Shown piece by piece: positions 56,641 to 57,957 of a DNA stretch of 64,000 nt. How positions within the stretch are numbered: the first letter of the stretch is position 1; every line of letters begins with the position of its first letter. The stretch spans positions 6,872-70,871 of the forward strand of contig JAXDIO010000154.1 of assembly GCA_034663965.1 (NCBI GenBank). Reading direction: 5' to 3'. This DNA is from Thermoanaerobaculia bacterium. Its GTDB lineage: Bacteria > Acidobacteriota > Thermoanaerobaculia > Gp7-AA8. Below the pieces are notes generated by a model. It saw only the letters and a list, made by a program, of their open reading frames with translations, made no database searches and was not told the origin of the DNA. The position numbers and the translations under genes are program-made.

Positions 56641-57957
56641 TCACACCGCCTTTCTCAGCAGGAAAAACATCAGCACGGCGGCGGCGCGCCGGGCCGTTTC
56701 GTCGGCGGAAACGAACTGCTTCGAATCCCATGTCGTACCGGCCACGATCTGTGGCCACCCGACGCGCGTGAAGTGCCTCGGCCATACCGCGTGTGTCGTC
56801 GCCAGCCGCGGCAGCACGTCGCCGACCCCCCACTCATCGCCTTGCCCCGTCCAGAGCGCGGCGAAGTGCGACTGCACGTCCGCCGGAAAGTCCGGTACGC
56901 GCTCCCAGCCGCCGGCGGTGTCTTTCGCGATGCGCCAGTAGTGGATGAGGATTTCCGGCAGGTCCTTCCGCCAGATGTATTGGCGGAACGGCTCCTTCGC
57001 GATTCGTTCGACCAGGTGCGTCGCCACGGCCATCCGGATCATGGACACGGCGCGCGTCAACTTCTGCCGCGCATCGTTCATCGAGAACGCGGGCTGGAAG
57101 TTTGTCACTTCACGGTCTTCGAAACGATCGCGAAACGGCATGACCGTGTCGTTGAGCAGGAAGTGCAGCGCCTTCACTCCTTCCCATACCGGATGGTCAT
57201 CCTGTTCCGGCCACGGCACGTGCCGCTCTTTCTCGCCTTGCGTCAGCCTGCGCACGCGCGGCCCTTCCGGTCCGCCGACGATACGGTAAAGGTCGAGCTT
57301 GTCGAGCGCTTCCTGCGCCGTGCGCATGACGAGAAGCTCGTTCGACTGCAGCCGCACCGCTTCGATCCCCTGCTGCTCGTCGGGCGCGAAGTACTGGCCG
57401 AAGAGCACCGCACGGACGCGGCTCTCGACGTTCATCCGGTGCATCAGCGCCTTCACGCGATCGACGATTGGCGCGAGCAGACCGCCGCCTGTCCCGCCGA
57501 TGATCGAGCCGACGGCAACGGTCGCGGAATCACGGGCTGGTGCGAAAAGACCGTCCGGCATTTGCTCGCGCGCCACGACGGATGACAAGGCAGGCCGTGC
57601 GTAGAGGCCCTTCGCGAGGGACTGCTGGCCGCTCTCCCGATCGAAAAATGCCCGCGCCGGATGCTCCCCGGGCGTGTTTTTCAAGCCCGACAGCTTCTCG
57701 AACGCGTTCGCCTCCGGCGCGTCGATCTTGAACGTGGTGATCGTCGGCAACTTCACGTTGCCCGCGGTCGTGTTCTGTGCGGCGCTCGTGCGAAGGAGCT
57801 CGAGAAAGCTCTTGATGCGCAGAATCGACTTCAGAATCTCATCGGTGTCGACGACTACGATGTCGGGTGCCTCTTCGACGACGCCGAGGAGATAGAGCTG
57901 GAGGTAGTAATAGGCGACGAGTTGTCCTGTTCCGCCGATGGCGATGACCTTGCTCAT
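56641..57957 (-). CDS. divergent tubulin/FtsZ-superfamily GTPase-like protein
   Basis: The start was trimmed to MSKVIAIGGTGQ, which has an AAGGGAG RBS. A T1-like block KVIAIGGTGQLVAY is present. A T4-like Gly-rich block GSIIGGTGGGLLAPIV lies about 160 aa later and matches the tubulin/FtsZ signature GGGTG[ST]G. Confidence 0.6.
   Translation of the reverse strand: MSKVIAIGGTGQLVAYYYLQLYLLGVVEEAPDIVVVDTDEILKSILRIKSFLELLRTSAAQNTTAGNVKLPTITTFKIDAPEANAFEKLSGLKNTPGEHPARAFFDRESGQQSLAKGLYARPALSSVVAREQMPDGLFAPARDSATVAVGSIIGGTGGGLLAPIVDRVKALMHRMNVESRVRAVLFGQYFAPDEQQGIEAVRLQSNELLVMRTAQEALDKLDLYRIVGGPEGPRVRRLTQGEKERHVPWPEQDDHPVWEGVKALHFLLNDTVMPFRDRFEDREVTNFQPAFSMNDARQKLTRAVSMIRMAVATHLVERIAKEPFRQYIWRKDLPEILIHYWRIAKDTAGGWERVPDFPADVQSHFAALWTGQGDEWGVGDVLPRLATTHAVWPRHFTRVGWPQIVAGTTWDSKQFVSADETARRAAAVLMFFLLRKAV

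Follow-up and report, generated by a model that had tools for sequence, protein, structure and literature searches.

The subject of this analysis is a gene on the minus strand at positions 56641-57957 of a 64,000-nucleotide stretch of DNA (hereafter the window) from a metagenome-assembled genome (MAG) of Thermoanaerobaculia (Acidobacteriota). Its product is a soluble, 438-residue nucleotide-binding protein of the tubulin/FtsZ superfamily that has diverged very far and lies nearest to the heterogeneous 'FtsZ-like 1 / Tubulin_2' group; the gene is the second of a cassette of six core genes that are translationally coupled through start/stop overlaps on the minus strand. A previous reading of the sequence alone (the sequence-only reading) had proposed a tubulin-like GTPase within a putative conflict operon at these coordinates, embedded between a membrane protein and an Hsp70-like ATPase; the coordinates and both neighbours (the upstream membrane protein, which is multi-pass, and the downstream Hsp70-like protein) are as it described, the strand being minus, and its proposal is supported, with 'conflict operon' being a term drawn from the genomic context. 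Plus-strand translation of 56641-57957 gives arginine-rich nonsense, the reading frame lying on the minus strand. The start codon was placed at the ATG at 57957, which has an AAGGGAG Shine-Dalgarno sequence 6 nt upstream, forms an ATGA overlap with the stop of the preceding gene, and matches the position at which homologues begin in an alignment of 50 sequences; it was preferred to a 586-residue open reading frame (ORF) with a GTG start (56641-58401), which was rejected as a high-GC artefact. A database record identical to the protein is annotated 'hypothetical protein'.

The N-terminus of the tubulin-like protein reads MSKVIAIGGTGQLVAY and residues 150-165 read GSIIGGTGGGLLAPIV; these segments carry two Gly-rich loops approximately 146 residues apart, corresponding to T1 (G8-G9-T10-G11-Q12) and T4 (G154-G155-T156-G157-G158-G159), each of which is invariant or nearly so in the 50 sequences. 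Residues G8, G9, G11, Q12, G154, G155, T156, G158, G159 and L160 are fully invariant in this alignment, which reaches down to 27% identity, so the two loops are not a product of chance. The register of the loops relative to FtsZ is our own mapping, made from the alignment and the E. coli FtsZ sequence. It places the family motif GGTGQ at T1, V-x-D37-T-D39 (DTD; NTD in FtsZ) at a T2-like loop, G117-L-Y/F-A-R-P-A-L-S (GLYARPALS in the target protein; GLGAGANP in FtsZ) at a T3-like loop, GGTGGG (GGGTGTG in FtsZ) at T4, and Y189-F190-x-P-D (PFxFEG in FtsZ) at a T5-like loop; residues of all five are invariant or near-invariant across the alignment. Conserved residues R202, S205 and N206 lie on helix 5, and an H7-like helix (residues 256-269) begins after the invariant W258. 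The T1-like motif that the sequence-only reading had seen at the start of the protein is thus present as GGTGQ. Its T4 assignment holds for the conserved GGTG.G core, but I-G-G-T-G-G-G is not an exact match to the GGGTG[ST]G signature that was named. The spacing between T1 and T4, said to suit a tubulin/FtsZ domain, is closer to that of tubulin but is some 60 residues longer than in E. coli FtsZ, owing to an insert between strand 3 and the T3-like loop. The protein has kept a complete N-terminal nucleotide-binding domain, and the invariance of its phosphate-binding loops across the family fits purifying selection.

An AF2 model, for which the 50-sequence alignment served as input, has high confidence (pLDDT 86.9, pTM 0.90) and shows the nucleotide-binding domain fold by which the tubulin/FtsZ superfamily is recognised (S1-S6, H1-H7, Rossmann-like), within an N-terminal GTPase-type domain of about residues 1-270. 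When this model was compared with known structures using Foldseek, the top 50 matches all belonged to the tubulin/FtsZ superfamily, which is the outcome that the sequence-only reading had anticipated for a structural check. We assign the tubulin/FtsZ fold with high confidence. The 'GTPase' label derives from the fold and the phosphate-binding loops, with the base specificity being predicted.

A search with the family profile, which covered 1.8 billion representative proteins, returned 77 full-length relatives at E 1e-30 or better (approximately 77 clusters at 50% identity), and a second tier of relatives (E 1e-18 to 1e-9) that match only profile positions of about 1-200. Grouped at 90% identity, the family amounts to about 113 clusters. 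The family is linked to the superfamily through such relatives: the target itself has no significant PF00091 match, and the connection is transitive, not direct. PF13809 (Tubulin_2) is matched, weakly, by 39 of the 50 family members (best E 4.2e-6), and PF00091 by 24 of them, also weakly (best E 0.003); three proteins (P0086, P0087 and P0096) carry a precomputed PF13809 annotation. For the target protein PF13809 gives 12.1 bits (E 0.11), below the gathering cut-off of 27 bits. Of ten second-tier proteins scanned, nine match PF13809 and/or PF00091; against PF13809, P0184 scores 29.1 bits and P0182 27.1 bits (cut-off 27), and P0182 scores 32.7 bits against PF00091 (cut-off 33). The second tier includes long proteins of the FtsZl1 type (825-1956 residues) with weak PF13809 and/or PF00091 matches. 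A comparison of the family profile with the Protein Data Bank (PDB) gave only chance-level matches to glycoside hydrolases. At present the tubulin-like family has no Pfam, NCBIfam or PADLOC model, and what is defined here is a compact, unannotated FtsZ-like subfamily.

In tubulin and FtsZ, the T7 loop and the C-terminal domain complete the active site of the neighbouring subunit in the polymer. The sequence-only reading had suggested looking for a T7 synergy loop; there is no canonical T7 loop and no C-terminal domain of the FtsZ/tubulin type, and the alignment to known structures spans only some 180-205 residues, i.e. the N-terminal domain plus H7. Since residues of about 290-438 are all-helical in the AF2 model and are unmatched by the second-tier relatives, the canonical C-terminal (beta) domain has been lost, and a family-specific helical domain occupies its place. 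A motif, F279-x-x-R282-E283 (conserved in 45, 40 and 44 of the 50 sequences, respectively), lies on a short helix after the H7-like helix, at the T7/H8 position, and is a candidate T7 equivalent judged from its sequence and placement.

The core genes are arranged in the order small membrane protein, tubulin-like, Hsp70-like, vWA, ZorA-like and ZorB-like. The first (57954-58562, minus strand) encodes a multi-pass membrane protein of approximately 180-200 residues with about four hydrophobic segments, for which translation probably begins at an internal ATG near 58496-58514; it has no match in Pfam or PADLOC, and its homologues lie directly upstream of the tubulin-like gene in related loci. Downstream of the tubulin-like gene is a gene for a 1025-residue protein (53562-56639, minus strand) with an Hsp70/actin-like ATPase domain in its C-terminal half, bearing the motifs DFGTTNT, NES.AC, DMGGGTLDVALF and LVGNGW in the alignment. 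A profile of this protein matches the nucleotide-binding domains of DnaK/Hsp70 in the PDB (E 6e-6), matches of family members to the HSP70/MreB Pfam models are weak, and the counterpart in locus L002 is 32% identical over the full length. Its N-terminal half (residues 1-490) matched no family, and an effector or sensor domain could be hidden there. This half is strongly conserved, with an invariant W12, the pattern S21-x-P-H24...H27-x-D29, and a Cys4 zinc-ribbon-like motif (C224, C227, C251 and a neighbouring Cys).

The vWA gene (52030-53604, minus strand; probable start ATG at 53565) encodes a protein with an N-terminal membrane anchor or lipobox, a vWA fold and beta-rich C-terminal domains, which is predicted to be periplasmic; its metal-binding MIDAS motif is intact, with residues D83-x-S85-x-S87...T149...D169 being invariant. 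The final two core genes encode a stator-like pair. The ZorA-like protein (50117-52033, minus strand; 638 residues) is a MotA/ExbB-family subunit with three transmembrane (TM) segments, a conserved G-x-AGT...FP-x-GF-x-GL core, and a long cytoplasmic coiled-coil tail whose length differs between loci; it matches the PADLOC ZorA models (E 1.7e-7) and the NCBIfam model antiphage_ZorA_3 (E 8.4e-6). The ZorB-like protein (49458-50132, minus strand; 224 residues, probable start ATG 50120) is of the MotB family, with a single TM helix containing an invariant Asp17 (NPWP-x-x-x-DLF), followed by an OmpA-type peptidoglycan-binding domain (Pfam OmpA 27.7 bits, cut-off 27.2) in which N153, R160, D187, R204 and R205 are invariant; it matches PADLOC ZorB (E 1.8e-9) and NCBIfam MotB (E 8e-12). 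A Pfam scan of the cassette genes found no kinase domain, and a promoter and terminator scan of 43000-62500 found nothing exceeding shuffled controls.

The constancy of this arrangement was examined by running profile hidden Markov models (HMMs) of the six proteins on the window and 19 related loci, the latter obtained from exact-protein look-ups and a scan of species-representative genomes. The six genes, with order and strand unchanged, are present in 12 of the 12 loci long enough to test, including one from a Bacteroidetes MAG, so that the tubulin-like protein stands in fixed synteny with the Hsp70-like ATPase, the vWA protein and the stator pair. In locus L006 the small membrane protein was missed by the profile at E 1e-5, yet a gene for 201 residues occupies that position; all the other cassette genes missing from related loci coincide with contig ends. 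Co-occurrence of homologues with vWA and Hsp70-like genes, which the sequence-only reading had singled out as informative, is therefore found in every testable locus, and, of the links to ZorAB-like, K+ channel and CHAT partners that it raised, the one to ZorAB is universal in the family, the one to the K+ channel is seen in one clade plus one locus of another, and the one to CHAT is confined to the 80%-identical locus L020. The tubulin-like family is uncommon, with a patchy distribution: when 185,579 species genomes were scanned with one peptide pattern as seed, 10 loci emerged, every one of them in a MAG and most in Acidobacteriota.

Around this core lie accessory genes, the most recurrent of which encodes a K+ channel (58480-59991, minus strand) with an Ion_trans_2 pore (Pfam E 1.3e-12; also NCBIfam), four hydrophobic segments near the N-terminus, and a segment weakly resembling the peptidoglycan-binding part of OmpA/TssL. 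In the clade whose members are at least 58% identical to the window protein, the channel gene precedes the core; in L013, which belongs to another clade (39% identity), a homologue (L013:16062-18386) lies between the vWA and ZorA-like genes. Overall it recurs in L020, L010, L011, L007, L012, L008 and L013, and its recurrence in two positions and two clades argues for a functional link with the cassette. A peptidoglycan-anchored K+ channel is unusual in itself. In L001 (the locus of P0058) a 911-residue AAA-family protein (L001:6626-9361), and not a K+ channel, precedes the small membrane protein, a sign that accessory genes on the upstream side of the core may be interchangeable. Further upstream in the window is a putative serine peptidase resembling Nal1_C (60271-61209, minus strand), of uncertain membership; its Pfam match (2.6e-5) is below the cut-off, and BLAST matches were found only in the closest relatives of the window locus, L011 (88% identical) and L020 (80% identical).

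Downstream, 7 nt after the ZorB-like gene, is a gene for a CHAT (caspase-like) protease (48035-49450, minus strand; Pfam CHAT E 3.4e-24), followed by an adjacent module consisting of an extracytoplasmic function (ECF) sigma factor (47111-47947, minus strand) and a 1081-residue zf-HC2 anti-sigma/TPR/CHAT protein (43869-47114, minus strand), both of uncertain membership in the system. The fusion of an anti-sigma factor to a caspase-like protease is a curious architecture. A CHAT protease accompanies the cassette only in the window and L020, and only these two share the ECF sigma and anti-sigma/TPR/CHAT arrangement directly after it; the flanks of L001-L008 contain neither these genes nor the CHAT or Nal1_C-like genes. 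The CHAT, ECF sigma and anti-sigma genes were accordingly rejected as core parts, being absent downstream in L001-L008 and common only to L020. The flanks of other loci include an integrase (L001), phage structural genes (L004), TPR-CHAT and GmrSD genes (L005), and a restriction-modification (RM)/Mrr enzyme (L006); such flanks are suggestive of a conflict context.

The closest relatives with published context are the FtsZl1 proteins, for which Makarova & Koonin 2010 (PMC2875224) proposed a function in membrane remodelling, with reference to operons that contain vWA and OmpA proteins. Additional file 5 of that work places FtsZl1 beside MotA/TolQ/ExbB and OmpA proteins in Deinococcus (DR_0538-0536), and beside three vWA proteins and a 1626-residue DnaK/HSP70 in Magnetospirillum (amb2957-2961). 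The family described here shares with FtsZl1 (PF13809, Tubulin_2) a divergent N-terminal tubulin/FtsZ nucleotide-binding domain with inserts between T1 and T4, the lack of a recognisable T7 loop, of identifiable T6-H7 elements and of a C-terminal domain, an alpha-helical C-terminus (PMC2875224), and operon partners that include vWA and OmpA-domain proteins, the latter represented here by the ZorB-like protein in all 12 testable loci. The family profile also retrieves P0184 (453 residues; above-threshold PF13809 match; E 9.3e-18) and P0199 (1068 residues; near-threshold PF13809 match; E 1.2e-14). The two differ in that the target has 438 residues, compared with about 1000, and no coiled-coil region, and in that its helical C-terminal domain is unmatched by the second-tier relatives. 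The cassette lacks the P-loop GTPase or Ser/Thr kinase partner frequent in FtsZl1 operons, its partners are all united in one invariant six-gene arrangement, and its hosts are Acidobacteriota, which were not on the 2010 list (PMC2875224). The tubulin-like protein is thus homologous to the FtsZl1/Tubulin_2 group and would work like it, but does not pass the formal tests of the family.

Comparison with Zorya systems reveals a similar mixture. As in Zorya, two stator-type subunits occur together, one resembling MotA, with three TM segments and a long tail, and one resembling MotB, with a TM Asp and a peptidoglycan-binding domain; the two match ZorA and ZorB models (the ZorA similarity being weak), system-specific cytoplasmic partners are present, and the context resembles a defence island. 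However, the scores are 24.9 bits for ZorA_3 (cut-off 250) and 21.9 bits for ZorB2 (cut-off 400), and the predicted partners are tubulin-like, Hsp70-like and vWA proteins; PADLOC gave no match for any of these or for the small membrane protein. With ZorA/ZorB scores far below the cut-offs and none of the effectors ZorC-G present, the cassette falls outside the known Zorya types.

Kaur, Burroughs, Iyer & Aravind 2020 (PMC7159879) described DO-GTPase/GAP1-N2 conflict systems with tubulin, vWA or HSP70 components, and proposed that their NTP-dependent assemblies set a threshold for the deployment of effectors (PMC7159879). Tubulin- and Hsp70-family NTPases with vWA proteins, and CHAT/caspase-type effectors nearby, are common to those systems and the window. 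However, the DO-GTPase systems are defined by paired TRAFAC-class DO-GTPases and GAP1, motors of the MotA/ExbB type are unmentioned in PMC7159879, and the tubulin-containing examples were described for Firmicutes and Actinobacteria (PMC7159879). Membership of the cassette in this class was rejected, as no Walker A motif (G-x4-GK[ST]) is present in the 11 genes spanning 43869 to 61209.

A related operon on a metagenomic contig (L021; ERZ27250982 k141_692691, 6395-18560) combines a small membrane protein and a tubulin-like protein with homologues of the giant Hsp70-like and vWA proteins, but has no ZorA/ZorB-like genes. Its 467-residue tubulin-like protein, P0182 (PF00091 E 1.1e-7), matches the family profile (E 1.4e-25) over the N-terminal domain only, and differs from the six-gene family in its C-terminal half; the operon also encodes an 879-residue homologue of the giant Hsp70-like protein (E 5e-28) and a 517-residue vWA homologue (E 6.7e-15). 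Unlike the window cassette, it includes an additional canonical HSP70 (558 residues; PF00012, 1e-71) and other proteins of no assigned family (571 residues, 123 residues and more than 1300 residues), and it adjoins an integrase. The occurrence of the triad without ZorAB indicates that the tubulin-like/Hsp70-like/vWA association is older and wider than the link to the motor, and suggests a wider, undescribed triad. In full-text literature searches, no publication was found to treat ZorA/ZorB and tubulin-like proteins as parts of a single system, nor was a description of the six-gene cassette found; its partial precedents are the FtsZl1 neighbourhoods of 2010 and the tubulin/Hsp70/vWA conflict systems of 2020.

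Taken together, the data probably describe a divergent tubulin-like protein within an envelope-triggered, Zorya-like defence cassette of soil Acidobacteriota. Motors of 5:2 stoichiometry are well established, and this background underlies the analogy drawn for the ZorAB-like pair. By that analogy, the ZorA-like and ZorB-like proteins would form a peptidoglycan-anchored, ion-driven 5:2 stator of the kind described for Zorya, as cited in PMC12204202. The vWA protein (predicted periplasmic) and the small membrane protein may sense the envelope or couple the motor to it, and the long cytoplasmic tail of the ZorA-like protein would relay the signal to the tubulin-like and Hsp70-like NTPases. These could assemble or switch in a nucleotide-dependent manner and so set the threshold of the response, in line with the proposal of PMC7159879. 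In the clade of the window, the output would be the peptidoglycan-anchored K+ channel, leading to ion leak or abortive infection, with CHAT proteases as possible additional outputs in the window genome. The most likely biological role would be anti-phage or inter-cellular conflict defence. An immune function specifically, as suggested by neighbourhood and analogy, is plausible but falls slightly short of an even call. The most elaborate form of the proposal, i.e. a new type of Zorya-like immune system in which a peptidoglycan-anchored, ion-driven ZorAB-like motor controls a nucleotide-dependent assembly of tubulin-family and Hsp70/actin-family proteins, and this assembly aborts infection by gating a peptidoglycan-anchored K+ channel (joined in some genomes by caspase-like CHAT proteases), is speculative and we regard it as unlikely to hold in full.

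Several observations weigh against a defence cassette built around a tubulin-like assembly. Direct searches with the target gave no significant match in Pfam, NCBIfam, PADLOC or PDB sequences, and when the family was compared with E. coli FtsZ by hhalign, only S4-T4-H4 aligned, in register, at E 0.29. On the strength of that value, sequence is insufficient to prove the FtsZ link, which is instead established by the structure and the transitive matches. The absence of the canonical T7 loop and C-terminal domain means that polymerisation is only inferred. No known Zorya effector is encoded in the cassette, the six core genes yielded neither a nuclease nor any other classical effector domain, and the ZorA resemblance is weak and partly within the coiled-coil tail. 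No family member was found on 2.9 million viral contigs, no cultured host is available, and the case for defence is drawn from neighbourhood and analogy only.

The main competing explanation is that the cassette is a housekeeping machine for envelope or membrane remodelling (vesicle formation, outer-membrane tethering or surface adhesion) and serves no immune purpose. This was the original proposal for FtsZl1-vWA-OmpA operons (PMC2875224), and it accords with the envelope location of all the non-cytoplasmic parts, with a core devoid of recognisable toxin or nuclease domains, and with the proposal that vWA proteins tethered to TolQR-like motors act as force transducers (PMC12204202). Against a housekeeping function stand the rare and patchy occurrence of the family (10 loci, all from MAGs, in the genome scan seeded with one pattern), variable flanks that include integrase, phage, RM, GmrSD, TIR, STAND and CHAT genes, and K+ channel and CHAT genes that are swapped in and out; we consider it unlikely, although it is the strongest competitor to defence as the role of the cassette.

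Other alternatives concern the tubulin-like protein itself. It is quite possible, if on the whole somewhat doubtful, that it does not polymerise but works as a monomer or dimer, serving as a GTP-dependent switch or adaptor docked on the Hsp70-like protein or on the tail of the ZorA-like protein. The missing C-terminal domain, which together with T7 forms the lower longitudinal interface in FtsZ and tubulin, would fit such a switch, as would the restriction of structural alignment to about 180-205 residues; on the other hand, a conserved site with an acidic residue (F279, R282, E283) sits where T7/H8 would be, and TubZ and PhuZ both polymerise in spite of divergent C-termini. FtsZl1 proteins, too, have been reported to lack identifiable T6-H7 elements (PMC2875224), which again favours a switch. 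TubZ and PhuZ are also among the best structural matches, and locus L004 adjoins phage structural genes, so that a segregation protein of a plasmid or prophage was considered. This candidate was rejected on account of the zero matches in the 2.9 million viral contigs and the lack of a TubR-like DNA-binding partner; in addition, the gene is always bound into a cassette of envelope proteins and the C-terminal domain differs, making a partition role highly improbable. The sequence-only reading had itself raised an NAD(P)- or FAD-binding Rossmann fold with coincidentally Gly-rich loops, which is just as improbable in view of the loop conservation and the uniformly tubulin/FtsZ structural matches.

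The favoured reading, a defence cassette coupling a ZorAB-like motor to two NTPases of cytoskeletal and chaperone type and to a predicted periplasmic vWA protein, would bring together two poorly understood groups, Zorya-type motors and FtsZl1 proteins, in a manner that can be tested. Work on Zorya reportedly shows that a flagellar-stator-like motor can serve as an immune sensor. To our knowledge only the nuclease partners of Zorya are understood, and we know of no function assigned to FtsZl1/Tubulin_2 proteins since 2010. Should the cassette prove to be a defence system, the known outputs of 5:2 motors would be widened, FtsZl1/Tubulin_2 proteins would gain a testable role, and a compact protein of 438 residues would be at hand with which to ask whether a nucleotide-binding domain lacking the canonical C-terminal domain can polymerise by itself. 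If the most elaborate form of the proposal were correct, the protein would be the first tubulin-superfamily signal transducer in prokaryotic immunity acting downstream of a 5:2 motor.

The window as a whole is a conflict region, containing a type VI secretion system (T6SS), TIR, a second ZorAB pair, nSTAND3 and CHAT proteins. The second ZorAB-like module, which is separate from the cassette and lies on the plus strand (35693-43069), comprises a TIR_2 protein (35693-36400), a MotA_ExbB/ZorA-like protein (36411-37652), a ZorB-like protein (37649-38329; PADLOC ZorB1 E 3.8e-27), two proteins that match no family (38326-39267 and 39283-40560), and an nSTAND3 NTPase (40544-43069), and may be another non-canonical Zorya-like system. 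The T6SS cluster occupies approximately 1-29 kb of the window, and includes genes for ImpA_N/TssA (3133-4200), VipB/TssC (4773-6299), TssF (7301-9115), a ClpV-like double AAA protein (10114-12702) and VgrG (26851-28908). A 1495-residue protein with TIG repeats and a PLD-like domain (22331-26818) resembles a T6SS effector, and a 691-residue protein consisting of six PKD repeats (31831-33906, minus strand) is encoded between the T6SS cluster and the TIR-ZorAB module.

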